Of a stretch of DNA of 64,000 nucleotides, positions 7,561 through 60,447 are shown piece after piece; positions within the stretch are counted from its first letter, which is position 1; each line of letters begins with the position of its first letter. Position numbers and translations under genes: made by a program. Origin of the DNA: Candidatus Kapaibacterium sp. (GTDB lineage Bacteria; Bacteroidota; Ignavibacteria; Kapaibacteriales; UBA4661); contig JANWZB010000002.1 in assembly GCA_025055035.1 (NCBI GenBank), positions 3,000-66,999 on the forward strand. Reading direction: 5' to 3'. The notes beneath the pieces were generated by a model. That model did not search any database and was not told the origin of the DNA. It worked only from the letters and a program-made list of their open reading frames with translations.

Positions 7561-9855
7561 TTACTGCAGTAGCGCAGGAAGAGCAGATTCGTACACAGAA
7601 CGAAGTCTGTAAATAGATGTTTCCATATATCCAACGATCTTGAACACATCCTCTACAACAGTACCGATATGCTGTACAGACACTTCGTAGGCAGCACTAA
7701 GTCTCTCTAGCATGGGAATATTCGTGTGAGGCAGTGCTACAAGAATACGAGATTGTATCTCACCAAACATCATAGGTACAGTTGGTGTAGACTGCATATC
7801 TATAGTTACCCCAAGATTACCATAAGAGTTAATAGCCATTTCTGCCAGAGCAACTGCTAAACCGCCTTCGGAAATATCATGCACAGCATGAACTAGACGC
7901 TGACGAATAGCAGTAATAACCAAAGCTTGAAGGCGCTTTTCTGCTTCGATATCCAGAAATGGTGCATCTCCCGTAATGTAACCATGTATTTGCTTGACGT
8001 ATTCAGAACCGCCAAGTCCTAGATTTGGCAGATCGTTCTGAATAAATAGTAATACAACAGCATCTCCAGCGTTGGTAAATCCATTACCTGTTACCGTTGA
8101 AACATCATCAATCAGTCCTACCATACCAATTGTTGGTGTAGGGAATATTGTGCGTGGCTTGCCTCCAGTTCGCGCAGCAGCTCGTGATTCGTTGTGAAAG
8201 CTCACATTGCCTCCCGTTACAGGTGTGTTTAATGCACGGCAAGCATCACCCATACCACGCAGTGCTTCACGAAACTGCCAGTACACTTCAGGATTGTACG
8301 GATTACCAAAGTTCAAACAGTTGGTAACTGCAACAGGTTCTGCTCCCGTACATGCTACGTTGCGTCCTGCTTCGGCAACAGCGATCATCCCTCCCATATA
8401 AGGATTCAGATACACATAGCGGCTGTTACAATCTGTTGTAACGGCAATTGCTTTGCCCGGCAACTCCTTTATGCGCAAAACAGCAGCATCGGCACTTGCA
8501 CGCAGAATAGTGTTTGTCCCAACCTCGGCATCATATTGTTCATAAATCCAGCGCTTCGATGCTATGGTAGGGGATGAAAGAATTTTCCAAAATGCTTCTT
8601 CTGTTGGTCGAACATCCTGCAATGCACGAAAATCTTCTTTGCGTGTTTCGCTGATGTATGCAGCTTCCTTCCACTCACGCACATACACTGGCGCTCCGCC
8701 TCCTAGTACTAGAGATTGCGCAGGAACTTCGGCTACTTGCTTATCATTGTGGAAAATACGTACCACACCATCACCTGTTACTTCTCCAATTTGCGTTATC
8801 GGCACGTCCCATTTTTCGCAGATTCTCCGAGCTCTTTCTTCATGACCTCTTTGGACGACAACAAGCATACGCTCCTGAGATTCTGAAAGCAGAATTTCAT
8901 AAGCACTCATGCCTTCTTCGCGAAGCGGCACAAGATCTAAATTGATAACCATACCTGTTCCTGCCTTAGCACTCATCTCCGATGTAGAACAGCAAATTCC
9001 TGCTGCTCCCATGTCTTGCATGCCTACAACTACTCCTTCTGCAATAAGCTCCAAAGAGGCTTCTAGAAGCATTTTTTCAGCGAATGGATCGCCAACTTGA
9101 ACAGTAGGACGCATATCTTCTGGAGATTCTTCAAACTCTTTAGATGCCATCGAAGCTCCATGAATACCATCTCGTCCTGTACGACTGCCTAAAATAAAGA
9201 CAGGATTTCCAACGCCTGATGCAACGGCTGATGCCGTTTTACCAACCTCTACAATCCCTACTGCCATTGCATTAACAAGAGGATTCTCGGTGTAGCACTC
9301 GTCAAAATACACTTCACCGCCTACAGTTGGTACACCGAACGCATTACCATAGTGCGAAATACCATGAACGACTCCATTGACAAGGTACCGCGTCCGTGCA
9401 GCACATTCACCATCCAGATGACCAAATCGCAGAGAATTAAGAGCAGCTATAGGGCGTGCACCCATCGTAAAAATATCGCGCAGAATACCTCCGACACCGG
9501 TTGCTGCCCCTTGCACTGGCTCGATAGCCGAAGGATGATTATGGCTTTCGATTTTGAATGCTAGCGCCCAACGTTTCCCGTTATGATAGCCAATATCAAT
9601 AAGCCCAGCGTTCTCCTGACCAGCCTCCACAAGCATTCGCCCACCAGAACGTGGAAGCTTCTTAAGCTCAAGAATCGAATTCTTATATGAACAATGCTCA
9701 CTCCACATTACACTATACATACCCAGCTCAGTATATGTTGGTAGGCGACCAAGAATTTTCATAATCGCATCAAATTCATGATCATGTAAACCAAGCTCTC
9801 GTGCGGTCTCGTGTGTAACAATGATTTCAGAATACAGATGTGGAAGAATGTTCAT
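7561..9855 (-). CDS. purL: Phosphoribosylformylglycinamidine synthase subunit PurL (FGAM synthase II)
   Basis: 764 aa with a duplicated AIR-synthase-like fold. Motifs include [17 protein letters not shown] and GGSEY. No purS or purQ is adjacent. Confidence 0.85.
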
Positions 9856-10041
9856 ACGCCATCTTAGGAACTATCTACGAAACATCTTAGCACAAATCTA
9901 CAAACATTCATTTCAGTACAACATGAAAAACTTTCTTTGATACTCCAACCTATCTGCAATTTCTTATAGTATCCATCGTCGAGCACGATGTTATTTCACT
10001 TGATGTCTGCACTTTTTCAAATTTATCAAGAAAGGCTTCAT

Positions 10042-13891: not shown

Positions 13892-14537
13892 CCAATCAAG
13901 CTCTGAGTTTGTAAGCTTTTCTCTAGCTAACATTGAAAACAGGCGCGACTCAGGTACAGTAAGTTTCTAAGCCGACACTATTTCAGCTGGTTCGTTCCTA
14001 TAATGGATTTGACCAGCTACAGATGAAATTGAAATACTGTAGCTACACAGCATACAAAGTCAATCTAAGAATCATCTGAGTACAAAGCTATGATGAACTT
14101 CCTACTACCTATAGAGCTGTTCCTTTCAAGGTGTCGGCAGCTTCAGATTACAGCTATTGTTCTTATAATGTAGTATAGCTTTTTTAATCCTGGGTTCTTG
14201 TGCTATTGTGCAGCAGATCACAGGAATAGACATGCCGCCACCTGACAACTACCGGCCACGGTTTATTAAAGCAACACGCACATTTTCTTTGGACAATTTA
14301 GACGATGCAGTACTAGAAAATAAGCCGAATAGAACCCGTTGCCGCAACAAAAGTAAAAGTATACATGCATCTGATTGATTCCAACGGTACTACCTTACTG
14401 GCGCATGTTCAAACGCACACAAAAAGATATGGTGCGAAGTCATTGACCACGTCGATGGAGTTCACCAGACCATTAAAACATTTACCGTTCGTGAGTTCAG
14501 CAAAGCTGAGCGTAAGCCTCAGGCTATTGCCTTAGTA

Positions 14538-16214
14538 ATGGATTTTAGCGGTTCAATGGGTGAAGGTAGAGCAAATGCTGTCCAGCAGGCAGCATACAAC
14601 TTCATCACTCAAGTCAAGCAGCCTAACGATGCTGTTACTCTCATCAAGTATGATCACCAAGTGTCTATAGAAGCACCTTTGACAACAGACAACAAATTGC
14701 TCATCCAGAATCTTCTTGCAAAAAAGGGCTTAGAAGGATATGGTGGTCAAACAGCAACTTTCTCAGGAATTGCTCAAGGAATTCGTGAGTTAACAAAATC
14801 TACTCCTTCACAGCAGCGCGTTGTTATTGTCTTTACTGATGGCGATTACAACGCATCACAGGTTTCGAAAGACGATGTCATTCGTTTCGCTCGCGAGACA
14901 AATACGATTATCTGTGCAATCGATTTTGGATATAGCATTGGTACTAATCTACTAGAGGAAATATCACGTAAAACCAATGGCACATATCATCACATCTATA
15001 ACCGCTCAGAGTTTGATCTAGTGTTTAAAGACATTTACCGCCGATTTGAACAGTACTATCTTCTGGAGCTTGAACAATCGGACTTCGGAACTCACACTAT
15101 TTCCGTAAAGCTGTGCCCACCACAGCAAATCTCATCATCCTTTGCCAATATAAGAGCAACTGGATACTATGATAATACTCCATATCCGGGATCTGTCTCT
15201 CTTCTTAATGTGTTCTTCGATGCTGATAAATCAGTACTCAGACCAGAATCGGAAAAAGCTATTAACCAACTTCTAAACCTGATGCAACGCGACACTAGCA
15301 TAATTATAGAATTACGTGGTCATACTGACTCGCAGAATAGTACCAAAGACCCTCAGCATAACTTAAAACTATCACAGCGGAGAGCTGAGGCAGTACGCGA
15401 TGCTCTTATCAAGCAGGGCATCAGACCAGAACGTATCTTTGCAAAAGGATTCGGCGACTCTCAGCTCGTTGCAAGCAATGCAACGCCAGAAGGGCGTGCC
15501 CAAAACCGACGCACAGAGTTTGCTATTCTAGGACAAAGCTGCAGAGCCCGTATCGACTCATTGCTTAACTTACCCCCAAAACGTATTGAAGCCGGATTAA
15601 TACAGCCATACCCAAACAGCAATCTTTCCTCATTACCACTACCCTCTTGCAAACAAGAACCAGAATCTATTTCATCTTTTGAATACCAAGTATGGCAAGA
15701 AATCAATCTTGCTCGTACCAACCCAAAGAAATATGCCACTTATATCAAAGAGTACGCTCAGCAACTACACTATCCCTTACGCGAAGGACCAAGCATTATT
15801 GAAGAGGCAATTTCCTATATGGATACTATATCGCCTCGTCCGCCACTTCCCCTTGCAGGATGCTTATGCCTAGCTGCTCGCGACCATGTAAATGACACCG
15901 GACCCAAAGGTATTTGGGGACACTCTGGCTCCGATGGAAGCGATCCCTTATCTCGCTCAAAGCGTTATATAAATGGATATGCATGGGCTTGTGAGAACGT
16001 TTCGTATGGGCAGACTACTCCTCGTAATGTCGTTATTCAGCTCCTTGTGGATGACGGTGTCCCATCTCGTGGCCATCGGCAAAGCGTCATGTACCATCTC
16101 AATAAAGCTGTTGGCATTGCAGCTGGCACTCACTCTCAGTATGGAACAATGTGTGTAATAGTTTTTTCTCTACAGGAAATCAATGGTCTTAAAACACTCC
16201 CTATCAAAGACTAA
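14538..16214 (+). CDS. vWA–OmpA_C–CAP(SCP/PR-1) three-domain protein; N-terminus apparently disrupted
   Basis: vWA MIDAS LVMDFSGSM...TDGD. OmpA_C ELRGHTDSQNS...NRRTEF. CAP/YkwD-like C-terminus (GHRQSVMYHLNKAVGIAAG). No signal peptide follows ATG 14538. The upstream in-frame sequence continues the vWA beta-strand but carries a TGA at 14376. Confidence 0.75.
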   Translation: MDFSGSMGEGRANAVQQAAYNFITQVKQPNDAVTLIKYDHQVSIEAPLTTDNKLLIQNLLAKKGLEGYGGQTATFSGIAQGIRELTKSTPSQQRVVIVFTDGDYNASQVSKDDVIRFARETNTIICAIDFGYSIGTNLLEEISRKTNGTYHHIYNRSEFDLVFKDIYRRFEQYYLLELEQSDFGTHTISVKLCPPQQISSSFANIRATGYYDNTPYPGSVSLLNVFFDADKSVLRPESEKAINQLLNLMQRDTSIIIELRGHTDSQNSTKDPQHNLKLSQRRAEAVRDALIKQGIRPERIFAKGFGDSQLVASNATPEGRAQNRRTEFAILGQSCRARIDSLLNLPPKRIEAGLIQPYPNSNLSSLPLPSCKQEPESISSFEYQVWQEINLARTNPKKYATYIKEYAQQLHYPLREGPSIIEEAISYMDTISPRPPLPLAGCLCLAARDHVNDTGPKGIWGHSGSDGSDPLSRSKRYINGYAWACENVSYGQTTPRNVVIQLLVDDGVPSRGHRQSVMYHLNKAVGIAAGTHSQYGTMCVIVFSLQEINGLKTLPIKD

Positions 16215-17642: not shown

Positions 17643-18143
17643 TGTGGAAAACTTGGTGAAAAACTTCTATTCTTGTGGAAAAGTTAAGGTGATTAACGAT
17701 TACCACTTCTTTTTCTTTCAAATGTTTCCTGTGCTAACTTACTATCTTATGTTCGCTATGCTCTTATCACATTGTGTAAGCATCGGAGTGCAAGATACTT
17801 CTATGCCAGTGAATAACCAAGATGAGTTTTACACATATCTCTATAGCTACGTTTTCCACATATTTTCCACCTATGTGAAAAACTTTGTGGATATACGGCA
17901 GGAAAGCTTTTGAAAAACTTCGGACTTTTTCTGGCAAAATCAATCTGATGTCTATTTTTCAACTTTCCATGAGCATAACTTTCACTCTAATTAACATTAT
18001 ACACACAACCTTCACTACGCTTTGCTACGCTATAAGTTTCTGTTATGTATTAGCTATTAGGAAGTTTACACAGCGTTTTCCACTTTTCCACAGTGTAAAC
18101 TTTTAGTACAATGTCTCATATATGCTTATATCATATATGCTTA
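17643..18143. promoter_or_regulatory. AT-rich intergenic region with seven DnaA-box-like 9-mers and a tandem 13-mer repeat (candidate oriC-like/DnaA-regulated element)
   Basis: TGTGGAAAA at 17643 and 17674. TTTTCCACA at 17852. TTTTCCACC at 17863. TGTGGATAT at 17886. TTTTCCACT at 18076. TTTTCCACA at 18084. Tandem TCATATATGCTTA at 18116-18128 and 18131-18143. Only low-complexity short ORFs here. Confidence 0.5.
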
Positions 18144-18282
18144 GACATACCAACATGTGCAATGCTTTTCTAGGCAGAATCTGACTAGAGGAACTGCTAA
18201 ATCTTGTATTTTTGCAGTAAAACAGCCCCAATTATTATACTACATACCACGCTGTATCACAATTCTACAACTTTACAACACT

Positions 18283-19668
18283 ATGGGAGAAGTATCCATA
18301 AGAGTAGTACTATTCTTTGTGATTGTTGGAGCAGTGCAGCTACTTCTAGATTGCATTGTATTATACTCATGGCGGTTGTACATACAACGCAAGCGCTGGT
18401 CTTCGCTGCTGTACACACTGCCAACACTTGTCGGAGTAGCAATGTTTATCCTATTTCCCGTGACAGTCTATTTGCGTTATACTGAGCTTCATCCAAGTCC
18501 TCTCAACAAGGCTCTACACAAACTGCTAGCAGTATGGTATGTACCCAAAGTACCTATTGCACTATTCATTCTTGGTTACTTCGGTGCACAAGCACTTCTC
18601 AATCGCTGGGGTGCAAAGATCGTTGCAGCACTTGAGTACCTGATAGAGAATACTCGAGCTGTTTCATTATTGCTAGTGCATCGCCTACATATGCACCGAG
18701 TAATAGCTTCGAAGGAACAGAAGCAGCGCAATCAGATACATAGCATAGAACGGCGTAAACTCCTAACATCATGTGTTCGCATAGGTACGTACGCTATAGC
18801 ATCTTCACCGCTAGTTGTGATAGGAAGAGATGCCATCAGCCTAGTTTATGACTTTGATGTCCAGCGTGTTACAATTCCTATACGCAACCTTCCCTCACAA
18901 TGGGAGGGCGTAACAATAGCTCAGATATCTGATATTCATGCTGGTTCCTTTTTCTCTGATAAGCCTATACAGGAAGTTTGTCGTATCATTGAGTCTCTTC
19001 GACCTGATGTGGTTGTTGTTACAGGAGATTGGGTAAATTGGAGAGCTTCTGAACTAAAGCTATTGTACCCTCACATTCAGCGTTTGTGCCGCTTTGCTCA
19101 GTCTTCTGCTCGGCTAGGATTGTGGGGTTGTCTAGGTAACCACGATCATTACTCTCATGGAGCTCAGCACCAAGCTCTGTTGAGCACTCTGCACTCTATG
19201 GGAGTAAAACTCCTTATTAACCAAAACGTTACATTAAAAGTTGATGGAGCGAAATTACAACTTGCTGGAATTGATAATATTGGGTTACGGCAAAATTACG
19301 GTCGGCTAGACAAAGCGCTAGAAGGCTTAGCACCAGACTTCCCAACTATACTGATGGCACATGATCCAACGTTTTGGGATGGCTATATTTGTGCAAAGCC
19401 TTTTTGTACAGAAACTGGAGAAATTCTTGTTGACGTGACGCTATCGGGACATACACATGGTGGTCAAATAGGGGTAAATGTATTGGGCAATAGTATCACA
19501 CCAGTACACTTCCTATATAAGTATTGCGCTGGGTTGTACAGCGATGAACATGGTTTGGGACAGCACATTTATGTCAATCGTGGGATAGGAACAACTGGGA
19601 TTCCAGTACGTATCGGTATCGCCCCAGAAATTACTCTGATAACCCTGAAAAAATTAGCAAGCACATAA
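18283..19668 (+). CDS. Membrane-anchored calcineurin-like metallophosphoesterase (YkuE-like)
   Basis: N-terminal TM helices, then DIHAG...GDWVN...GNHD...GHTHGG phosphoesterase motifs. Start taken at the internal Met (MGEVSIRVV). Confidence 0.7.
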   Translation: MGEVSIRVVLFFVIVGAVQLLLDCIVLYSWRLYIQRKRWSSLLYTLPTLVGVAMFILFPVTVYLRYTELHPSPLNKALHKLLAVWYVPKVPIALFILGYFGAQALLNRWGAKIVAALEYLIENTRAVSLLLVHRLHMHRVIASKEQKQRNQIHSIERRKLLTSCVRIGTYAIASSPLVVIGRDAISLVYDFDVQRVTIPIRNLPSQWEGVTIAQISDIHAGSFFSDKPIQEVCRIIESLRPDVVVVTGDWVNWRASELKLLYPHIQRLCRFAQSSARLGLWGCLGNHDHYSHGAQHQALLSTLHSMGVKLLINQNVTLKVDGAKLQLAGIDNIGLRQNYGRLDKALEGLAPDFPTILMAHDPTFWDGYICAKPFCTETGEILVDVTLSGHTHGGQIGVNVLGNSITPVHFLYKYCAGLYSDEHGLGQHIYVNRGIGTTGIPVRIGIAPEITLITLKKLAST

Positions 19669-19697
19669 TTTTGTGTCTTTAATATAAAAATGCAAAA

Positions 19698-19724
19698 CTG
19701 CTTCTAGTTTTTTCCTAGAAGCAG
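19698..19724. terminator. Bidirectional rho-independent terminator hairpin (10-bp perfect stem CTGCTTCTAG/CTAGAAGCAG)
   Basis: Lies between the convergent phosphoesterase gene and tRNA-Asn. A U-tract follows on the minus-strand side. Confidence 0.6.
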
Positions 19725-19749
19725 TTCGGTTATATAATGTTCCAGCAAG

Positions 19750-19823
19750 CTCCGGAAGCAGGGCTTGAACCTGCGACCCTCTGATTAACAGTCAGATGCT
19801 CTAACCAGCTGAGCTATTCCGGA
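19750..19823 (-). tRNA. tRNA-Asn (anticodon GTT)
   Basis: Reverse complement is TCCGGAATAGCTCAGCTGGTTAGAGCATCTGACTGTTAATCAGAGGGTCGCAGGTTCAAGCCCTGCTTCCGGAG. It forms a perfect 7-bp acceptor and an anticodon loop CUGUUAA. CCA is not encoded. Confidence 0.9.
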
Positions 19824-19893
19824 AAATAGCGCGTACTGTACACATAGCCCACAAATATATGCCTTTTCTATAGCAAAGTCAAGAACTTTTTTG

Positions 19894-20541
19894 CTATGGC
19901 AACATGTGCTGTTTGATAGATGGATCGGTGGACGGTGGATAAGATGTACTGCCTCGGATAGTTCCTAGGTCTTTTTGCATAAACCCAAAAATACTTCCAC
20001 AAATACCACCTAGAATATGAGCAAACTGTGATACATTGTCAGCTTTCAGCGAATTATATACCTCTCGTCCTAAATATAAGACTAGGACAATAACAAATGT
20101 TAGGGGAATGTATCCCTGTCGCAGATTAGCGAAAGAGCTGAGCAAAATCATCATAAACACAATCCCACTTGCTCCCATAAGTCCTGTTGTGAACAGAAGA
20201 TTATTCAAAACAGCTGTAACGACAGCAGTGGTGATAATCATGACAAGCATTGATTGAGAGCTGTATTTTTCCTCTAAGAGAGGTCCGATAAGCAAAATAA
20301 CAGAGAGATTTCCAAACAAATGTTCCCAGCTAGCATGACCGAATATGTGGGAAAATAATCGGAAATAAGTCATGATATCAGTCCACGAGGAATGAGGATA
20401 CGTTGCAAAAAACATTTGTCCGAGAGTACCACCTGTAAAATTACTTGCAATCATAACCCCAGCAGAGACTAGGGCAAAAGTCAGGACAACAGGGGAATTA
20501 TAATCAAGTTTCATGAACCTTACACTCAGCTGAAATGGCAC
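19894..20541 (-). CDS. Rhomboid-family intramembrane serine protease
   Basis: Six to seven TM helices. A GASG (GxSG) serine motif and a His in a later helix (AHILGG). Confidence 0.75.
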   Translation of the reverse strand: MPFQLSVRFMKLDYNSPVVLTFALVSAGVMIASNFTGGTLGQMFFATYPHSSWTDIMTYFRLFSHIFGHASWEHLFGNLSVILLIGPLLEEKYSSQSMLVMIITTAVVTAVLNNLLFTTGLMGASGIVFMMILLSSFANLRQGYIPLTFVIVLVLYLGREVYNSLKADNVSQFAHILGGICGSIFGFMQKDLGTIRGSTSYPPSTDPSIKQHMLP

Positions 20542-27996: not shown

Positions 27997-28173
27997 ATAT
28001 ATTGAAGTTTGTCGTGAGCTGCCAAAGTGATATTTTTATGGGCTTAATTCTTGTCGCAATACTTTCAAATAGTGCCCTTCGCTATGATGTTGTGTGCTGT
28101 GCGTTGCTTCCATATGCTGCGTTGTGTGTGGAAAACATCATTGAAAACAGCATGTTGTAGCATAATGTTGCTG

Positions 28174-31100
28174 ATGTGCCAGAACCTGCAACGACTACAC
28201 ATCTCGCAATGCGGAGGAACTCTTCTAGTGTTGCTGCTCTCATCTGTACATGTATTGTACACGCAATCTTTAACGCTTTTTGATGTCAATGCTTCGGCGT
28301 TTCCTGTGGTCCGAGCAAAGTTTTTTGCTCTCGATGCTGACGGAAAACCGCTAACTGATATATCTGCTCGTGATGTTGTTGTGCGAGAGCATGGGGTCCC
28401 CCGAACTGTAACAGCTGTTGTGTGTTCTCCACAGCAGAGCACAGTGCGGTCTCTCTCTGTTGTTTTGACAATTGATGTTTCAGGTTCAATGAAAGAAGGA
28501 ACTTCGGGCGTTTCGCATTTGTCCTTAGCACAAGCAGCTGCACGTGCATGGGTGCAGGCTATGCCTGAAGAAAATGTCGAATGTGCAATTACAAGTTACG
28601 ACCACATAAGCTATCTCAACCAAGATTTTACACAAGACCGTAAGCGTCTCCTTAAAGCTATCGCTAATTTGAAGCCTCAAGGGGGAACAGATTATGATGC
28701 AGGACTTCTCAGACCGCAAGGAGGAAGCTTGTTCGTGATGCAAAATGCTAAGTATAGTCGCCGTATCGTCATTTTTCTTACAGATGGACAAGGCGGAGGA
28801 ACTGAAGAGCAAATAATTGAAGTAGCAAAAAGCGATGGCGTGAGCATATACTGTATTGCTGTTGGTATGCCTGCACCCGAAATTCTACGCAATATTGCAC
28901 GCCAGACAGGAGGAGAGTGCTTCGATAATATTACAACAGTTCAACAAGCTGAGCAAATCTACCGTATTCTGTTACAATTTGCTCTTGGGAGTAAGCCATG
29001 CGAAGTATCATGGCTCAGCGAGCAGACATGTAGTGTCAGCCGTGTGCAAGCAACACTATCGCTCCCTGCACGCCTACTCTCCCATGCGTTTACCTACGAG
29101 ATTCCCGCAAAAGCTGTCAAGGCGCTAGAATTTTCGAGCGAAAACATTACCTTTGGTGGAGTTCCTCCGGGAAAGTCGCGAGAGATGCGTTTAGTTCTAC
29201 GTGCACGTAATAGTGCGTTTACCGTTAATAGTATTGAGAGTTCAGATGAACGATTTAGTGTAACACCGACGTACTTTACCCTGAAGTCTGGACAGCGTAA
29301 AGTCGTTACTGTAAAATATACTCCTACAGATTCAGGATATGCCTTTGCGACACTAACAGTGAACGATAATGTATGTGGGAACCACACTCTGTATGTCAGT
29401 GCAGGATTCCCTGGAAAAAAGCCTCAGCAATCCACATTGAAGTTGTTAGAGCCAAATGGTGGTGAGCAGTATGTTGCTGGGTGTGATACGGTGATTCGTT
29501 GGCAGGGAATTACGCCATCGGAGGCTGTCAGTATTGAGTTCAGCGATGATAATGGTGCATCGTGGCAGAAAATCATTCCTGCTACAAGTGGTCTGCGAAC
29601 AGATTGGCAGATACCCAAAACTTCAACAACTAGAGCACTTGTTCGTCTAAGGCAGCTTCAATCGCCTACATTTTCTCATTTCAAAGACCTCATGACAAGT
29701 GCTGTCTTTCTGCCCGATAATCGTACAGCTGTAACACTTGGTTCAGGAGGAGTTGCGCGAGCATGGAATCTCGATAAAGGTACAATGGGGCAAATATACT
29801 TTAGCAACCAGTTTGGTCAGCGTAAGAGCACCCTACTTCCCGGTAAGCTTGTCGTAACACCGCAGGGCGAATACGTTATTGGCGGATTTGATGAAGGTAC
29901 TGTGCGAATTTGGGACGCTGCAAGTGGCGACTTAGTGGATGTATACTACGATCATGCCGATGCAATTACTGCATTGCGGTTCTTCCCGAGTGATGGGAGC
30001 CGTGTAAGCCGTGTTCTTACCGCAAGCCTCGACAGTACTGCACGAGTATGGTACATAGAGAACGCAGAAACTGCACTTGTGCTTAAGCATAACGGCCCTG
30101 TATACGATGCTGTTGTTTCACCTGATGGTTCTCTTATCGCGACAGCTGGTGGTGATAGTGTTGCTATGCTGTGGGATGCGAAAACAGGCGAGTTACTCTA
30201 CAGGTGCGAAGGACATACGGATGTTGTCCTAAGCGCTGCATTTTCGCCGGACAGTAAGAAGCTTTTGACAACAAGTGCTGATGGAACAGCACGAATCTGG
30301 GATACACGCAAAGGAACACAGCTGGAACGATTCACAGGACATAGAAGTGTTGTATATATGGGAATCTTCTCGCCCGACGGGGAGCGTGTTGTGACGTGTA
30401 GCGCTGATAGTACTATCAAGGTATGGAGTGGCAAAGGTGGAGGATGGATCCAAAATCTACGAGGGCACCAGGGTATTGTAAGAAAAATTATGTTTGTACC
30501 TAATAGTTCAGCGATACTTTCAAGTGTGAGTTCTGATAGAACAGCAAGAATATGGGATTTATCTGCAGGTCGTACAGTCCAAATTCTTGGAGGTGTTGAA
30601 GCACGCAGCAAATCCAGCGTTGGAAGTGGAATAGGCATAGCTGATGGGCATACTGGTGCAGTGTACGATATGGTATTTTCTCCTAATGGTGCGTATGCAG
30701 CTACAGTAGGCACTGACCATAAAGTGTATTTTTGGAGAATAAATACAACAGCATCAGTCTCTGCTGGAAGTATTTTTCGATCTAGCCCTTTAATTTGGGC
30801 GCTTGACACCACTGCTGTACAAGAAGCTATCTCTGCTGCTCCATTTACTATTACTCAGCCTCGTTTTTCTGTTAAAAGCATTGATATGGGGCGGCAACTG
30901 CGTGGGGACAGCAAGGATTCTGTTATTGTAGCTTGTATCCAAAATGAGGATAATACTCCTTTGCGCATTGATGAGTTGTCATTTCTTGGTAGTGCGGCAC
31001 AGGACTATAGTATTGTGTCAGGCGGAGCGCCGTGTATCGTACCCCCAAAAGGTTCTCGTAATCTGGAAGTACGCTTTAAGCCGTGCTGCGTGGGCGGGAG

Positions 31101-32907
31101 ACCAGCACAGCTTCGGATTGTCTCTCAGTCAGATGTGCGATATGTATCTGTGACAGGAGCAGGTGTATCGCCACTTATCGTTGTTATGAATCGTAGTGTA
31201 GATTTTGAAGAGGTGAAAATTAGGCAATACCGTGATACTGTAGTTACTGTGTTAAAAAACATTAGCCTACAGCCTGTTATTATTACTGGTATTTCGTTCA
31301 TTGGTCCTAATACAACGGATTTTCGCCTTGTGGGGAATGCATCGCAAATTATTCGTACAGATACATCATATATTTTGTACCCAAATGCTACACTGTCGTT
31401 GCGCCTACGGTTTAAGCCTACAAATAGTGGGCGTACTTCTTGTCAGATGAATATTGAGTATAGTGGATTAGGTAGTCCTGCAACAGTTCAACTGTTTGGT
31501 ACAGGGAATTCAGCACTCTCTGCATATATTCAGCCATTTGGTGTAAAGCCTCATCCAAGCTCTAGCCGTAAGGATAGCGTTGAATATCCAATACAAGCTT
31601 TACGCGTGGAGGAATTCCTTGCAACAACTATGCATCCACTCTTGAACTATATATTCTTTGACAACAACTCATTTACTCTTCCACGCCGTTATAATCAGCT
31701 TACACCAGAGCAAGCACGTCGCTTGATAGAGACGAAACAAGCATTTGAGAAAGTTCTTTCTGCACAATCGACGCTTGATGTGTACAGGAATGTGCTCAAC
31801 ATTATTGGTAGCCGCATGCTCCTTTATCCTTCCTCAATGCTGACGATTGTTGGGTGCAAATCAGGAAAAGAAAAGTTCGTAATTCCGGCCACACAGGCGC
31901 GAGTACTTGCATTATCAGCAAGCAATGCTCAAACAATTACAACAACGCAGGCAAATATGGTACCAGCAACAACTTCTCAGTTGACGCTAGTTGAGCACGC
32001 AAGTATCTTACAAAAGCTTACGGCTCAAGATGATATGCGCCTTTCAGAAGCACGAGCCCTAGCAGTGCGTGAGTATCTTCACACAGTATGGGGAATTCCT
32101 GAGGAACGCATGCCGATTCAATTCCGAGGGCTACCAGAAAAGTTCTCTAATGAGCAAATACCTGATGGCATAGCAGAAAACCGCCGCGTCGAATTGATTC
32201 CTTCTATACCAGAGCTTACGGCAACGGTTCTTGCTCAAGATACGCTAAGGGTTGTCGTGCCACCTGTTGTACGCTTTCGCACAAATGCACTCTCGCAAGC
32301 AAATCTTACTACATGGAATGTTGCAGTAGTACAAAGCACCGGTTCTAGGTCCCGAAAAACAACTCAAATCCTCAAAACTGTTTCTGGTACGGGAAAACCG
32401 CAGGAGCGCATAGAATGGAATACAGAGCGAGAGGTATCAACAGCGCCAAAGCTTACCGTTCCTGTGCAATATAGTTTGAGTGTAAATGATGATAGTGGTG
32501 CAAATACTATAGCTTCGGGTAGTTTACCGCTGGAGCTTATCTCGATTTCTAAAAAGCGTGCGGCGAAGGCTGCAGATAAGGAGGTCAATACGTTTGGTTT
32601 GCTACTGTTTGATTTCAATAGAGCAGAGATTACGGGTCAAAATGCCAATGTACTGGAATTTGTTCGTAAACAAATACTTCCCGAATCTCGTGTGAGTATT
32701 GTAGGCTACACAGATCGCACTGGTAGTAGTCTCCTAAATAAGTCTTTGTCTCTTCAGCGAGCAAAGGCAGCAGCAAGCGCACTCAGTCGTCCTGATGCTC
32801 TTGTGCAGGGGCGTGGGAGCGACGGTTTGCTGCATGATAATACGACACCAGAGGGAAGGTTCTACTGCCGAACGGTAAACATTGTTGTAGAAAATGCTAT
32901 ACGCTAA
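28174..32907 (+). CDS. Giant exported multidomain protein: signal peptide – vWA – Ig-like – WD40 beta-propeller – Ig-like – 2x OmpA_C-like
   Basis: vWA MIDAS TIDVSGSM...TDGQGGG. At least six WD40 blades (GHTDVVLSAAFSPD...ARIWD, KVWSG, ARIWDLS...). Two C-terminal OmpA-like domains (...NRRVELIPS and VGYTDRTGSSLLNKSLSLQRAKA). Start taken at MCQNLQRL... (28174), a plausible signal peptide. The listed ORF start 28051 is probably over-extended. Confidence 0.75.
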   Translation: MCQNLQRLHISQCGGTLLVLLLSSVHVLYTQSLTLFDVNASAFPVVRAKFFALDADGKPLTDISARDVVVREHGVPRTVTAVVCSPQQSTVRSLSVVLTIDVSGSMKEGTSGVSHLSLAQAAARAWVQAMPEENVECAITSYDHISYLNQDFTQDRKRLLKAIANLKPQGGTDYDAGLLRPQGGSLFVMQNAKYSRRIVIFLTDGQGGGTEEQIIEVAKSDGVSIYCIAVGMPAPEILRNIARQTGGECFDNITTVQQAEQIYRILLQFALGSKPCEVSWLSEQTCSVSRVQATLSLPARLLSHAFTYEIPAKAVKALEFSSENITFGGVPPGKSREMRLVLRARNSAFTVNSIESSDERFSVTPTYFTLKSGQRKVVTVKYTPTDSGYAFATLTVNDNVCGNHTLYVSAGFPGKKPQQSTLKLLEPNGGEQYVAGCDTVIRWQGITPSEAVSIEFSDDNGASWQKIIPATSGLRTDWQIPKTSTTRALVRLRQLQSPTFSHFKDLMTSAVFLPDNRTAVTLGSGGVARAWNLDKGTMGQIYFSNQFGQRKSTLLPGKLVVTPQGEYVIGGFDEGTVRIWDAASGDLVDVYYDHADAITALRFFPSDGSRVSRVLTASLDSTARVWYIENAETALVLKHNGPVYDAVVSPDGSLIATAGGDSVAMLWDAKTGELLYRCEGHTDVVLSAAFSPDSKKLLTTSADGTARIWDTRKGTQLERFTGHRSVVYMGIFSPDGERVVTCSADSTIKVWSGKGGGWIQNLRGHQGIVRKIMFVPNSSAILSSVSSDRTARIWDLSAGRTVQILGGVEARSKSSVGSGIGIADGHTGAVYDMVFSPNGAYAATVGTDHKVYFWRINTTASVSAGSIFRSSPLIWALDTTAVQEAISAAPFTITQPRFSVKSIDMGRQLRGDSKDSVIVACIQNEDNTPLRIDELSFLGSAAQDYSIVSGGAPCIVPPKGSRNLEVRFKPCCVGGRPAQLRIVSQSDVRYVSVTGAGVSPLIVVMNRSVDFEEVKIRQYRDTVVTVLKNISLQPVIITGISFIGPNTTDFRLVGNASQIIRTDTSYILYPNATLSLRLRFKPTNSGRTSCQMNIEYSGLGSPATVQLFGTGNSALSAYIQPFGVKPHPSSSRKDSVEYPIQALRVEEFLATTMHPLLNYIFFDNNSFTLPRRYNQLTPEQARRLIETKQAFEKVLSAQSTLDVYRNVLNIIGSRMLLYPSSMLTIVGCKSGKEKFVIPATQARVLALSASNAQTITTTQANMVPATTSQLTLVEHASILQKLTAQDDMRLSEARALAVREYLHTVWGIPEERMPIQFRGLPEKFSNEQIPDGIAENRRVELIPSIPELTATVLAQDTLRVVVPPVVRFRTNALSQANLTTWNVAVVQSTGSRSRKTTQILKTVSGTGKPQERIEWNTEREVSTAPKLTVPVQYSLSVNDDSGANTIASGSLPLELISISKKRAAKAADKEVNTFGLLLFDFNRAEITGQNANVLEFVRKQILPESRVSIVGYTDRTGSSLLNKSLSLQRAKAAASALSRPDALVQGRGSDGLLHDNTTPEGRFYCRTVNIVVENAIR

Positions 32908-32924: not shown

Positions 32925-33353
32925 ATGAGATACTGGCTTATTAAATCTGAACCAGAAGCATACTCATGGTCTGATTTTCAGCGCGACTGTATAACGTCCT
33001 GGGATGGTGTGCGAAACTATCAAGCACGAAATAATCTTCGAGCGATGAGTGTTGGAGACAGAGCGTTATTCTATCATAGCGGGTCAGAAAGAGCTGTCGT
33101 AGGAATTGCAGAAGTAGTGCAAACAGCGTATCAAGATCCTACAACCAATGACCCATCATGGGTATGTGTTGACGTCCGACCGCTGCAGCAATTCAAAAAG
33201 CCTGTTCGGTTGAAAACTATCAAGGCTACTCCACAGCTTGTTAGAATTGGGCTACTCAAGCAGCCAAGGTTATCGGTTGTTTCTCTGTCGGAGGAGGAAT
33301 TTAAGACGCTCTGTGAGCTTGGCGAGAGCTGCTCGGACTCAAACAATAGTTAA
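32925..33353 (+). CDS. EVE-domain (PUA-like) protein
   Basis: Opens MRYWLIKSEPEAYSWSDF and shows EVE fold conservation. 142 aa. Confidence 0.7.
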   Translation: MRYWLIKSEPEAYSWSDFQRDCITSWDGVRNYQARNNLRAMSVGDRALFYHSGSERAVVGIAEVVQTAYQDPTTNDPSWVCVDVRPLQQFKKPVRLKTIKATPQLVRIGLLKQPRLSVVSLSEEEFKTLCELGESCSDSNNS

Positions 33354-56865: not shown

Positions 56866-59800
56866 TCATTTGTGTTGGAATAGTTTGGTTATGCGTAGCG
56901 TAGTATCGAGCAAGCGTTCTCGCACACTCAGTAGACCCAACGATAAAAGCACGGTGAAGATTGTCATGCATATCAAAACAACCGCATTATAGCAGACAGT
57001 CGGCACGTACTTCTGGGAAAAGAACATACGCTTCTCATGAATTAGCATTGGATAGTCGAAAAGTCCGATGTGCGCTTGGGTCATTACTCCGCCAGTGCTA
57101 TCAAGGGCTTGTAGCATAGCGTGGAGCTTATCCTGTGCTTCGAGCACCTGACGGTGGATTTCTTGATTTCCATACTTATCTTGAAACTGTAAGCGGTGCT
57201 GCTCGACCGCAGAATCGAGAGAAGCCTTGTTTTGTTCATAAGCGTCAATTTCTCGCTCTGCTCTTTCAATACTTTGATTGAGTTGTACAAGTTTAGTCTG
57301 CAGTTCGGCGCTTAGTGTGGAGGAGTCGGCTTGAGCAAGGAGAGAGTTACGTTCTTGTAGTGCCGCGTCACGTTCATCGTAAACACGTAGAATATTTTTT
57401 GCTGGCGCCTGCAGTTCATCATCCCTACTTTGGAAACGATTATACCTATCTTGCATCGTTATTAAGCCTTCGTATGCCCAGCGTGCTGGGATAAGCTGGC
57501 AAATCTCTGGGATTTCGCGTGTAGTGTTGAACTTTAAGTGAGTCATCTCGCTGTATGGAATAAGAGCGCCCCCAAAGATGATTTGGGGAATGAGAACAAG
57601 GGGTACAATGTTAAATGCTGCTTTTGCTGACAGGTTCGGTAGCGCTGATATAAGGAGTCCAGTTGCTATACCAACAATCGAAACAAGAGTAAGAAATAGT
57701 AGGTACGCAGCATGAAGTTCTTGGAGCTGCAGTATCGGAAAAGCAGCTATGATAAAGAGAGCGTTTTGCAGCAATGCAAAGACAACGAGCGTAATGAACT
57801 TCGATGCATAGTAGCTGAGGTTGCCAATATTCAGCATCCGTTCTCGCAGAAGAACAGCAGCGTCTTTGATGATTTCATCTATACTATTGGTAATTGCTAG
57901 AAATGTTGCAATGATAACTGCCAAAAATATGAAGATGGCAAGGTTGTCGTTTTGAAAGAGATTGTATTCGGCATCGATGTCGGCTGCATGCCGCAAAATG
58001 AAGCTTACAGCAAGAGCAAGAGCTGGTGCTTCAAAAAATGTAATAATGAGATTAGAGCGGTCGCGAAACTTGTTGACAAAGTTCCGTTGTAAGAGAGTAG
58101 TAAATTGTCGCCACTTTTCGCGCAAAGAGAGTTCACGAGGCTGTGGAAGTGAGACGCGTTCGGAGTCTTCTATTGTTAGGCGGTGTACAGAAGCACGAAA
58201 ATCCAGAAACTTTTCCTTCCAGTACATTGGTGTGTATTTACGCTGAGACAGGGGCACACCATCAATATCCCGCAAGGGTTCTTCGAGCGTTTCGAGCAGC
58301 AAATCCGGTTCAACGTTTTTACATACAGGACACTCAACCATTTCAGCAGCAACTTCGGGGTTTACAGGCGAAGCAGAAACGTGAGACTCAAGAGAATGAG
58401 TTTTAAAGTATGCTAGTGCTGCCATTGTGTCGCCAAAAAATGCAGTTTTTCCTCCTTTGTCTAGGAACAAAATCTTATTGAACATCTTGTATATCTTGGA
58501 GCTTGGCTGATGAATAACCACAAAAACAATCTTACCTTTGAGTGTTAAGCGCTGGAGTAATTCAATAATTTTTTCCGAATCTTTTGATGATAAGCCTGAT
58601 GTTGGCTCGTCAAGAAAGTATACATCTGCATCAGCTAAAAGCTCTAAGCCAATATTCAAGCGCTTACGCTGTCCTCCTGAAAGAGTTCGTTGTGTTGGGC
58701 TTCCGACCTTGACGTTGCGCTTCTCTACAAGATCGATATCTACAAGTGTTTGCTCGACAAGAGTACAGATTTCTTCATCGGACATATCGGGATGTCGAAG
58801 TCGAGCGTTATACATCAAGTTTTCATAAACTGTTAGATTTTCAAACAATAAATCATCTTGCGGTACATACCCTAGATAGTCTTTAAGTGCTTGGTAGTCG
58901 TGGTGAAGATCGTAGGCATTGATTTCGATATTACCGTCATTTGGTTTATTGTAGCCATTCATAATATTTAGCAATGTAGATTTCCCGCACCCTGAAGGAC
59001 CCATAACGGCGACAAGGTCTCCATAGTCAATCTCAAACGAGATATCATCGAGGGCAAGAGTGTTATCTTGGAAAGAGTAACGAACATTTCGAGCGATAAA
59101 ATCGCGGAAGCGAAATGGTTCGGAGCGTACTACACCTCCCAAGAACGAGCAATGGAAGACTTGCTTGGAGATAAAAATGTGGCACTCGGCAGGAAGAATT
59201 TGGGGCTTCTTTACTGCTTTCCCATTGTAGCCGATGCGATGAGGACAACCACGCGGGTCAAGAATATACTCTGCCGAGCTAGCATGATCCTTGCGAGTAA
59301 CGGTGATGTGCCACTGTTTTGAAAGACCATCATGAAAGATAGCATCGCATTCCGCATGATTTCCAAACGTGAACGATGGCTTTTTGGGATCGAACGTGAA
59401 GACTTCACTTTCGAGACCATATTGAAACGCAAGCTTACGGAGGTTAATTGGGCAGTTTCCAATTAGAACGCTGTCATTCAAGTTAACATATACTTGTGTT
59501 TCTACAGGGCGTCCGTTCACAACAAGCTGATTGGCAAGCTTTCCCAAGTCGGAATCTGTAACACCAAGCGGTGTCAGAATAATAAAGAGCTTGGTAAATT
59601 CGATGAGCAAGACGTCGTCCATACTAGGCATTTGCGAGAGAACAAACTCTGTTGTTCTACGTTCGGGGTTGATTCGACGCGATACGAATAGAGCAAATCC
59701 GAGTAGGGTTTTTGTTTTAAGGTGAAAGTAGTAGCTTAGGTCTTCGAAATTGATAGTATAGCTATCAATCGAAATGGACTGATTGTGCTGAATTTTCGTT

Positions 59801-60447
59801 GCATTGAGCAAATTTCGCGATGTCTTGCCAGCAATAGGAACGTTGCCAACTTTCACAAGATGTTTGTCATTCTTTTGAAGAATGATGTAGATACTGCGGA
59901 TTTTGAATATTTCTACGTCAAGGAGCGGAAAGGGCAATACAATATCGAACAGCTGCGGGTCGTCGCCAATAGTGATAGAAATTATCTCAGACTGTTTTGC
60001 TATTTCTAGTGTTTCTGTAGAAGGTAGGTCGTAGATGCTTTCTACTTTGCATATGTCGGGGTCAGTCAATCCTATCATGCGTCCAATTCTCCGTGCCGTT
60101 TCGCGTTCTACATCGTCCATCGTATCCGAAGCCGCAAGCTCATAAACTTTCATCAGGATAAATACACGGTTTTCGTAGGAAAATCCCGTACGAATTTGAG
60201 CTGCTGCTTGCTCTGCATCAATATTTTCCGAGAGAAAGTACTCAAATTGCTTGTAGAGATACTCTGCAACAGGAGCATGATAAATGGACGTGAGATAAAA
60301 TCGCACGTAGTCACGCTCTGCCTGCGAAACACTGCTATCCGCTTTAGCAAGCAAGCTAAATAGCTTGACAGTGTTGATAAGAAGCGAATTACCTAAGCTC
60401 TCTTTGAGCGTAGAGGCTTGAGAAGTATCATGAGCGTGAGAAATCAT
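56866..60447 (-). CDS. TerB-like – FHA – FHA – ABC ATPase – ABC-2 permease fusion (ABCG/White-type half transporter, Rv1747-like architecture) with C-terminal coiled coil
   Basis: N-terminal TerB-like repeats (KADSSVSQAERDYVRFYL / ASDTMDDVERETARRIGRMIGL). FHA-like segments (FTFGNHAECDAIFHD..LSKQWHITV...NGKAV). NBD with Walker A GPSGCGKST, signature LSGGQRKRL, Walker B VYFLDEPTSGL and H-loop VIHQPS. Six TM helices, then a coiled-coil region and a terminal TM helix. Confidence 0.8.
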   Translation of the reverse strand: MISHAHDTSQASTLKESLGNSLLINTVKLFSLLAKADSSVSQAERDYVRFYLTSIYHAPVAEYLYKQFEYFLSENIDAEQAAAQIRTGFSYENRVFILMKVYELAASDTMDDVERETARRIGRMIGLTDPDICKVESIYDLPSTETLEIAKQSEIISITIGDDPQLFDIVLPFPLLDVEIFKIRSIYIILQKNDKHLVKVGNVPIAGKTSRNLLNATKIQHNQSISIDSYTINFEDLSYYFHLKTKTLLGFALFVSRRINPERRTTEFVLSQMPSMDDVLLIEFTKLFIILTPLGVTDSDLGKLANQLVVNGRPVETQVYVNLNDSVLIGNCPINLRKLAFQYGLESEVFTFDPKKPSFTFGNHAECDAIFHDGLSKQWHITVTRKDHASSAEYILDPRGCPHRIGYNGKAVKKPQILPAECHIFISKQVFHCSFLGGVVRSEPFRFRDFIARNVRYSFQDNTLALDDISFEIDYGDLVAVMGPSGCGKSTLLNIMNGYNKPNDGNIEINAYDLHHDYQALKDYLGYVPQDDLLFENLTVYENLMYNARLRHPDMSDEEICTLVEQTLVDIDLVEKRNVKVGSPTQRTLSGGQRKRLNIGLELLADADVYFLDEPTSGLSSKDSEKIIELLQRLTLKGKIVFVVIHQPSSKIYKMFNKILFLDKGGKTAFFGDTMAALAYFKTHSLESHVSASPVNPEVAAEMVECPVCKNVEPDLLLETLEEPLRDIDGVPLSQRKYTPMYWKEKFLDFRASVHRLTIEDSERVSLPQPRELSLREKWRQFTTLLQRNFVNKFRDRSNLIITFFEAPALALAVSFILRHAADIDAEYNLFQNDNLAIFIFLAVIIATFLAITNSIDEIIKDAAVLLRERMLNIGNLSYYASKFITLVVFALLQNALFIIAAFPILQLQELHAAYLLFLTLVSIVGIATGLLISALPNLSAKAAFNIVPLVLIPQIIFGGALIPYSEMTHLKFNTTREIPEICQLIPARWAYEGLITMQDRYNRFQSRDDELQAPAKNILRVYDERDAALQERNSLLAQADSSTLSAELQTKLVQLNQSIERAEREIDAYEQNKASLDSAVEQHRLQFQDKYGNQEIHRQVLEAQDKLHAMLQALDSTGGVMTQAHIGLFDYPMLIHEKRMFFSQKYVPTVCYNAVVLICMTIFTVLLSLGLLSVRERLLDTTLRITKLFQHK

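Follow-up and report, generated by a model that had tools for sequence, protein, structure and literature searches.

CglB and PilY1 are bacterial VWA adhesins, and PilY1 combines its VWA domain with a β-propeller. PorE, a component of the type IX secretion system, carries a five-bladed propeller. PorE has been crystallized with a peptidoglycan fragment, and in that complex its residues Asp576, Asn584, and Arg591 hold the diaminopimelate (PMC7192894). A 64,000-nucleotide stretch of Candidatus Kapaibacterium sp. DNA (assembly GCA_025055035.1, contig JANWZB010000002.1, positions 3,000 to 66,999 of the forward strand; hereafter the window) encodes a giant protein of 1,577 residues (coding sequence 28174..32907, +), in which a VWA domain and a WD40 propeller stand together with two C-terminal OmpA-like domains. 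By sequence comparison, the giant protein is a chimera, consisting of the head of a secreted adhesin and the tail of a periplasmic anchor, because the head is common to type IX secretion cargo and the tail is common to probable barrel-OmpA proteins. Both modules, the head (residues 31 to about 1100) and the tail (about 1115-1577), also occur separately in the same bacterial group.

The reading frame of the giant protein is uninterrupted from 28051 to 32907, and the ATG at 28174 yields 1,577 residues plus the stop codon; other in-frame starts lie upstream as far as 28051. All parts of the gene described below lie on the plus strand, residue numbers refer to the 1,577-residue protein, and the AlphaFold2 prediction was run as two models, an N-terminal one (mean predicted local distance difference test score, pLDDT, of 88) and a C-terminal one (83). 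Fifteen further proteins of 1,550-1,651 residues align with the giant protein end to end, with 55-70% identity, giving an orthologue set of 16 proteins (P0001-P0016). Collinear, full-length orthologues are present in at least 16 independent metagenome-assembled genomes (MAGs) of Kapaibacteria/Ignavibacteria. The MAGs, which were scanned using one genome per species, are labelled Candidatus Kapaibacterium, Ignavibacteria, Chlorobiota, or Bacteroidota, and were produced by many independent studies. Since collinear full-length copies recur in so many independent MAGs, the sequence comparison indicates that the gene is genuine and conserved, and is not a fusion artefact. A first-pass annotation of this DNA, made from the letters alone, had predicted an exported open reading frame of ~1580 residues, which is borne out by the uninterrupted 1,577-residue frame and by a signal-peptide-like leader preceding a conserved QSLT motif. 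Frameshifts that would split the gene in related strains, which the same annotation had named as a sign of an assembly error, were not seen in the orthologues.

A search with the whole giant protein also returned 104 remoter homologues, which share its head with an identity of 30-43%. When the C-termini of these proteins were classified with locally built tail hidden Markov models (HMMs), ~68 were found to end in a sorting domain and ~19 in an OmpA end. The sorting-domain HMM was built from ten homologue C-termini pre-annotated as Por_Secre_tail, and its target was checked with Pfam, which finds Por_Secre_tail in P0079 and P0106. Because ~68 of the 104 remoter homologues end in the sorting domain, the head normally serves, judged by sequence, as the passenger module of proteins secreted by the type IX system. 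The sorting-domain-tailed relatives from Ignavibacteria/Kapaibacteria (for example P0017-P0028, P0079, and P0106) share with the giant protein the same order of signal peptide, VWA domain, ASH Ig domain, BNR-like sandwich, propeller, and choice-of-anchor D domains, but end in Por_Secre_tail where the giant protein ends in the OmpA cassette; they are, therefore, expected to be secreted or attached to the surface. Their similarity to the giant protein covers about 70% of its length, and no experimental work on any of them was found in the searches made. Some head relatives carry a PQQ/BamB-like or SBBP propeller in place of the WD40 propeller. The sorting-domain HMM matched none of the 16 orthologues, and the Pfam model PF18962 was not found in the giant protein.

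The tail (residues 1083-1577) was searched against 1.84 billion representative proteins, and matched 913 representative clusters at E ≤ 1e-30; nearly all of the matches listed are 650-730 residues long. The tail, of ~460 residues, is ~40-45% identical to these ~700-residue proteins over their last ~290 residues, and a second, weaker stretch of similarity lies upstream. In the two ~700-residue proteins that were read, the homology extends from VEEFL...LLNYIFF, through GCxSG and the inter-domain Ig unit, to the terminal PEGRFYCRTV. The first OmpA-like domain of the ~700-residue family also has GCxSG, not GxTD, so its binding site is degenerate in the same manner. These proteins (for example P0241 and P0250) are true tail homologues, whose own N-terminus is a probable barrel of ~250 residues and not a soluble head of 1,100 residues. 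Outer-membrane β-barrel models matched this N-terminus in five of the ten sequences, with a best E of 6e-7 but with scores that do not reach the Pfam cutoff, and profile searches of the PDB returned only noise; the matches suggest that it is probably an outer-membrane β-barrel. If the ~700-residue proteins consist of a barrel followed by OmpA, like E. coli OmpA, then their tail is periplasmic, and its homology to the tail of the giant protein should favor a periplasmic placement for the latter. The ~700-residue family (P0241-P0389) is large and apparently unstudied, and is likely to be the main OmpA-type protein of Ignavibacteria/Kapaibacteria.

In a neighbor-joining tree of the heads (unbootstrapped), the OmpA-tailed sequences fall into at least two clades among the sorting-domain-tailed ones, with deep branches that are long and unsupported. 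Two OmpA-tailed, full-length paralogues that are ~30% identical can share one genome (L005/L033 and L003/L063). The existence of at least two OmpA-tailed clades, together with these coexisting paralogues, is suggestive of a tail exchange that was either old or repeated, and no conclusion is drawn on the direction or the number of events.

The VWA domain (28444..28983, residues 91-270) was identified by Pfam and by alignment, and is the most conserved domain of the giant protein, with 53% invariant columns among the orthologues. Pfam VWA_2 matches residues 96-206 (E 5e-15, 56 bits against a cutoff of 27), and Pfam VWA also matches (E 3.5e-11, 44 bits). The metal-ion-dependent adhesion site (MIDAS) is complete, comprising D101-x-S103-x-S105, T172, and D204, and these five residues are invariant in the 16 orthologues, as expected from the MIDAS-containing VWA domain proposed in the first-pass annotation. 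AlphaFold2 predicts the VWA α/β fold with a pLDDT above 90. The nearest relative in sequence with a solved structure is the VWA domain of Mfa5 (E 9e-5), with the MIDAS region aligned. The domain is preceded by a β-strand unit (28264..28443, residues 31-90; AlphaFold2 strands E2-53 of the N-terminal model), and the TIGR03436 model (acidobact_VWFA) matches residues 45-258. The invariant MIDAS and the high conservation of the VWA domain suggest that any partner of the giant protein would be fixed and probably endogenous, rather than a set of variable external ligands.

The VWA domain is followed (28984..29664) by a β unit, an ASH-type Ig domain (residues ~317-412), and a small BNR/Asp-box-like β-sandwich (residues ~420-497), recognized by Pfam and by the AlphaFold2 strands. 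Within the stretch of residues ~271-497, Pfam ASH matches with an E of 5e-10, and the matches of Cep192_D4, the Reelin subrepeat, and BNR are weak. The WD40 β-propeller (29686..30747, residues 505-858) comes next, with a Pfam WD40 match in six stretches (E 1.8e-47, 158 bits) and an insert of variable length in the loop before blade 8. The first-pass annotation had counted seven blades; the WD40 assignment stands, but the number must be corrected to eight, because eight WD repeats are present in the sequence, 31 strands are present in the AlphaFold2 model, and the best Foldseek matches of the propeller (ODA16, Rsa4/Nle1, Fbw7, and the designed Tako8) are all eight-bladed. Tako8 superimposes with a template-modelling (TM) score of 0.92 and a root-mean-square deviation of 2.0 Å in Foldseek. 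Blades 5-8 are the least conserved part of the protein, with 17% invariant columns. Two choice-of-anchor D/ASH-type Ig domains follow (30859..31467, residues 896-998 and 1000-1098), recognized by NF012200 (choice-of-anchor D; 82.2 bits against a cutoff of 45, E 3e-23, in three stretches) and by their AlphaFold2 β-sandwiches; Cep192_D4 matches here as well. Foldseek searches with the C-terminal model mostly returned tandem ASH Ig domains (Hydin and CEP192 SPD-2), and nothing informative on the OmpA cassette. In place of the two Ig-like segments proposed in the first-pass annotation, some six or seven β-sandwich units were found, namely the β elements that flank the VWA domain on either side, the ASH Ig domain, the BNR-like sandwich, the two choice-of-anchor D domains, a small β unit, and an Ig unit between the OmpA-like domains.

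In the C-terminal AlphaFold2 model, the tail (residues ~1101-1577) consists of a small β unit, an α/β domain with an insert, a β-sandwich, and a final α/β domain. The small β unit (residues ~1101-1162) and a non-canonical OmpA-like domain 1 (residues ~1163-1345), which carries the GCKSG motif, together span 31474..32208, and the small β unit has 43% invariant columns. OmpA/MotB models match only the C-terminal half of domain 1 (residues 1285-1342). In its binding site, GCKSGKEK replaces GxTD, an Asp occupies the Asn position, and the Arg (in LSEARA) alone is kept. AlphaFold2 gives domain 1 an α/β order, interrupted by a disordered, low-pLDDT, low-complexity insert of variable length (residues ~1250-1283), which is 19% conserved. 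Domain 1 thus appears, in sequence and in the predicted model, to have an OmpA-like fold that is degenerate as a peptidoglycan-binding site. An Ig-like β-sandwich (32221..32544, residues 1350-1457; AlphaFold2 strands E493-597 of the C-terminal model), which is also kept in the cassette family, separates it from the canonical OmpA_C-like domain 2 (32545..32904, residues 1458-1577; Pfam OmpA at residues 1478-1562). Domain 2 is related to Rv0899, YiaD, and Omp38 in the PDB (E 1e-8), and has 43% invariant columns. It keeps the peptidoglycan-contact triad D1514, N1522, and R1529, which is invariant in the orthologues and has the same spacing (+8/+7) as D576, N584, and R591 of PorE. The first-pass annotation had assigned an anchoring role to both OmpA-like domains; Pfam upholds the OmpA assignment, as it does the WD40 assignment, and the intact triad agrees with such a role for domain 2 but not for domain 1, in which only the Arg remains. 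No membrane β-barrel was detected in the giant protein, since no Pfam barrel model matches it and both AlphaFold2 models contain soluble folds only; the barrel-then-OmpA_C layout of classical OmpA-type outer-membrane proteins is, accordingly, not that of the giant protein.

A probable Sec signal peptide, MCQNLQRLHISQCGGTLLVLLLSSVHVLYT, occupies 28174..28263 (residues 1-30), with the cleavage before QSLT, as read by eye from the alignment. The mature N-terminus QSLT is invariant among the aligned orthologues, where it is preceded by a hydrophobic stretch and an A-x-A-like site. Neither a lipobox nor a lipidation Cys was found in the alignment of the giant protein with its orthologues; the mature end is QSLT, without a Cys. 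An identical protein (P0001) is already held by NCBI, under the name “choice-of-anchor D domain-containing protein”. Its deposited start is a TTG near 28255, so that it begins with MYTQSLT, has 1,550 residues, and has lost the whole signal peptide. The orthologue alignment supports a true start at or upstream of 28174. The giant orthologue in L002 is 58% identical, and its called start is probably too far upstream, since it is overlapped by 4 bases by the end of a LexA-like repressor gene (9252-10004; LexA_DNA_bind and Peptidase_S24). As an exported and soluble protein, the giant protein has a predicted mass of about 170 kDa.

Taken with the predicted models, the sequence comparisons favor, at about an even chance, a soluble, Sec-exported giant protein that remains in the periplasm, where its last OmpA-like domain would attach it to peptidoglycan without a covalent bond. 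The periplasmic location is favored because a signal peptide is present, but no sorting domain, barrel, lipobox, or visible outer-membrane route is. In such an arrangement, the canonical OmpA-like domain 2 would dock on the diaminopimelate-containing stem peptide and the Ig domains would serve as spacers, while the metal ion of the VWA domain would capture an acidic side chain of a partner and the propeller would offer a second protein-binding face. Anchored to the wall in this way, the protein would give one or more envelope proteins a platform to bind to. A wall-tethered scaffold, either adhesin-like or periplasmic, had been suggested in the first-pass annotation; the domains fit a scaffold of this kind, and the evidence points to a periplasmic platform over a surface adhesin.

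Several observations weigh against the periplasmic, wall-anchored model. Cleavage in this genome would occur at a non-canonical site, LYT|QS, and more than one codon could be the start, with the one called by NCBI deleting the signal peptide. Heads of this type are usual in adhesins and in secreted type IX cargo, which points to an action outside the cell. By our estimate, the approximately twelve domains, if fully extended, would exceed the usual width of the periplasm, and the protein would therefore lie along the wall or fold back. The barrel call for the ~700-residue family comes from sub-threshold Pfam matches in half of the tested sequences, without support from the PDB, and the giant gene is without a conserved neighbor that could name a partner. 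Finally, we infer the location, the peptidoglycan binding, the metal-dependent capture of a ligand, and the endogenous nature of the partner.

A cell-surface adhesin, with the head brought outside the outer membrane by a route independent of a sorting domain and the OmpA cassette acting as a periplasmic trans-envelope anchor or as a binder of a surface polymer, is an unlikely alternative. In its favor, type IX cargo makes up about two-thirds of the remoter homologues that have this head, and the choice-of-anchor D domain is defined as one found in surface-sorted proteins. Moreover, among VWA sequences with a solved structure the closest belongs to a fimbrial tip adhesin (Mfa5), and the pilus adhesin PilY1 likewise pairs a VWA domain with a propeller. 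The orthologues, however, lack a sorting domain, a barrel, a lipobox, and any autotransporter-like segment, and their tail is common to proteins in which it should be periplasmic. The high conservation of the VWA domain is also unlike that of many adhesins that face a host or a substrate.

There is a slim chance that the giant protein instead assists some outer-membrane machine and ties it to the wall, as PorE does in type IX secretion or as TolB-Pal does, with a PorE-like succession of propeller, β-sandwich, and OmpA_C and with the VWA domain as an extra contact. PorE is periplasmic and peptidoglycan-bound, and consists of TPR repeats, a β-propeller, a β-sandwich (CRD), and an OmpA_C-like domain (PMC7192894, PMC5053529, PMC12773672). 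Type IX components or cargo are encoded in relatives of the organism (a weak T9SS_plug match and a weak Por_Secre_tail match), and, as members of the head family are themselves carried by type IX secretion, a periplasmic copy could contact the same system. The specific models nevertheless argue otherwise: T9SS_PorE (NF052230) is not among the 25 NCBIfam matches of the giant protein at E ≤ 0.1, the protein has neither a TPR match nor a lipobox, and the TolB model (TIGR02800) scores 17.9 bits against a cutoff of 343, in a match confined to two blades. In addition, no secretion or Tol-Pal gene adjoins the giant gene in the window or in the relatives. That the gene is an artefact, made of separate genes wrongly joined in assembly or annotation, or that it is a pseudogene in decay, is very improbable. 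The stop and frameshifts in a nearby small VWA-OmpA gene do show local damage or error in the contig, but the giant gene has a 4.7-kb uninterrupted frame, its collinear orthologues of 1,550-1,651 residues from many independent studies are conserved along the whole length, and every domain was modelled confidently.

A further proposal, which is speculative and to which we assign a low probability, is that copies of the same head work on either side of the outer membrane. The type IX copies would act outside, and the OmpA-tailed copy would be a periplasmic, wall-anchored receptor or chaperone-like dock for the same partner or for the secreted copies in transit; or else the OmpA cassette would be an unrecognized device by which a large adhesin, lacking a sorting domain, is fixed to the envelope or spans it.

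If the periplasmic, wall-anchored model is true, a simple swap of tails decides whether one head of 1,100 residues goes to the surface (with a type IX sorting domain) or to the wall (with the OmpA cassette), which amounts to a natural experiment in envelope targeting. It would also provide a handle on what VWA-propeller proteins bind in Ignavibacteria/Kapaibacteria, a group with few cultured members and essentially no envelope biology, and would draw attention to a widespread, unstudied tandem-OmpA cassette with a GCxSG-variant first domain. The architecture is uncommon, and in the sequences compared the giant protein appears confined to uncultured Kapaibacteria and their relatives. All of its parts are known domains and its sequence is already public, and the mechanism that can be read from the sequence goes no further than a tethered binding platform.

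The genes surrounding the giant gene vary among the relatives. An MscS gene adjoins it in the closest clade only (L001, L003, L005, and L009), an EVE gene lies downstream only in L001 and L009, and the clade with 57-58% identity has other neighbors. In the window, the EVE-domain gene (32925-33353) starts 18 bases past the stop of the giant gene, and in the closest relative, L001, it overlaps the end of the giant gene. Because no EVE gene follows the giant gene in the more distant clade of orthologues, its adjacency probably reflects synteny, not function. A search for conserved neighbors, as recommended in the first-pass annotation, yielded none beyond the closest clade, and no operon partner was found at the window locus or at the loci of the relatives. 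The rest of the window holds ordinary chromosomal housekeeping genes, including pheT, purL, murB, leuC, and those of glutamine synthetase and adenylosuccinate lyase, and no type IX cargo was found in the window.

About 12 kb upstream of the giant gene lies the small, distantly related VWA-OmpA gene (14150..16214, +), which comprises an intact open reading frame (14538-16214) and a disrupted 5′ part (~14150-14537). Pfam finds VWA (E 1e-16), OmpA (E 2e-22), and CAP (E 1.6e-7) domains in the intact frame, whose first residues are the MIDAS motif itself; a lipoprotein signal peptide and an N-terminal domain lie upstream and are broken. A tblastn search with the orthologue P0122 and an analysis of the frames revealed, within 14150-14537, an in-frame TAA inside the expected lipoprotein signal peptide (..LFL*CSIAFLILGSC.., with the stop shown as an asterisk) and a patch of ~25 codons in another frame between two compensating shifts near A-rich runs. 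The broken 5′ end marks either a pseudogene or decaying gene, or a local assembly error. The closest relatives are lipoproteins of ~490 residues, 67% identical and without CAP, which begin with MQKILFLLLAAAAIALTGC and have the lipobox LTGC, and the family has more than 1,000 matches, typically of ~460 residues. The CAP domain was not found in the 119 other homologues listed, and one related genome has a PIN-domain gene downstream in the place of CAP. A SLPLPSC stretch just before the CAP domain (window 15650-16214) could be the lipobox remnant of a separate lipoprotein, in which case two genes were fused by a deletion.

The small gene had been read in the first-pass annotation as a VWA-OmpA-CAP paralog of the giant gene, and as evidence of a small paralogous family. 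Its domains were confirmed, but not the family: over the VWA domain its identity with the giant protein is only 25%, with short OmpA matches besides, which indicates common domain families but not recent ancestry, and close paralogy was rejected in favor of a separate lipoprotein family. The ~460-490-residue lipoproteins follow the same VWA-plus-OmpA logic as the giant protein, but lack a propeller and an array of Ig domains, and their OmpA domain is single and canonical. The combination of VWA and OmpA recurs in the lineage, with a second example of 660 residues in L068.

Two further observations were made in the window. The cumulative GC skew reaches a minimum at about 18000-20500, from where it climbs without a break over the remainder of the window; this minimum adjoins a tRNA-Asn gene (19749-19823, minus strand) and a rhomboid gene. 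It may correspond to a replication origin or terminus, and no dnaA was seen in the window. An open reading frame of 1,193 residues (56866-60447, minus strand) encodes an N-terminal TerB domain together with an ABC ATPase and a membrane domain of the ABC-2 type, an unusual fusion.

In keeping with the earlier statement that no characterised prototype exists, no full-length structural relative of the giant protein was found in the PDB and no paper on its family was found in the literature, yet the sequence is deposited and named in NCBI; the work retrieved concerns PorE, type IX secretion, and TolB/VWA force transducers. In homology, the closest groups are the type IX cargo with the same head and the probable barrel-OmpA proteins with the same tail, both uncharacterised. 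Membership in several described families was considered and rejected. The giant protein is not a member of the PorE family (no NF052230 match, no TPR, and no Cys at the mature end) or of the TolB family, which has an N-terminal TolA-binding domain and a six-bladed propeller (by the TIGR02800 score given above), its BatA score is far below the cutoff, and it does not belong to the type IX cargo, having no Por_Secre_tail-like sandwich at its C-terminus.

Among the known VWA proteins, the similarity to Mfa5, the tip subunit of the minor fimbrium of Porphyromonas gingivalis, is limited to the VWA domain, and Mfa5 sits on pili and has no OmpA-like anchor; CglB and PilY1, too, resemble the head in this domain alone. 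The propeller of PilY1 is not of the WD40 type, and VWA adhesins sit on pili or on the cell surface without an OmpA-like anchor. PorE (PG1058) of P. gingivalis likewise contains a propeller, a β-sandwich, and an OmpA_C-like domain with Asp/Asn/Arg contacts (PMC7192894); unlike the giant protein, it is a lipoprotein with TPR repeats, a single OmpA-like domain, and no VWA domain. By analogy, PorE is the nearest characterised counterpart of the giant protein in its logic, though not in its family.

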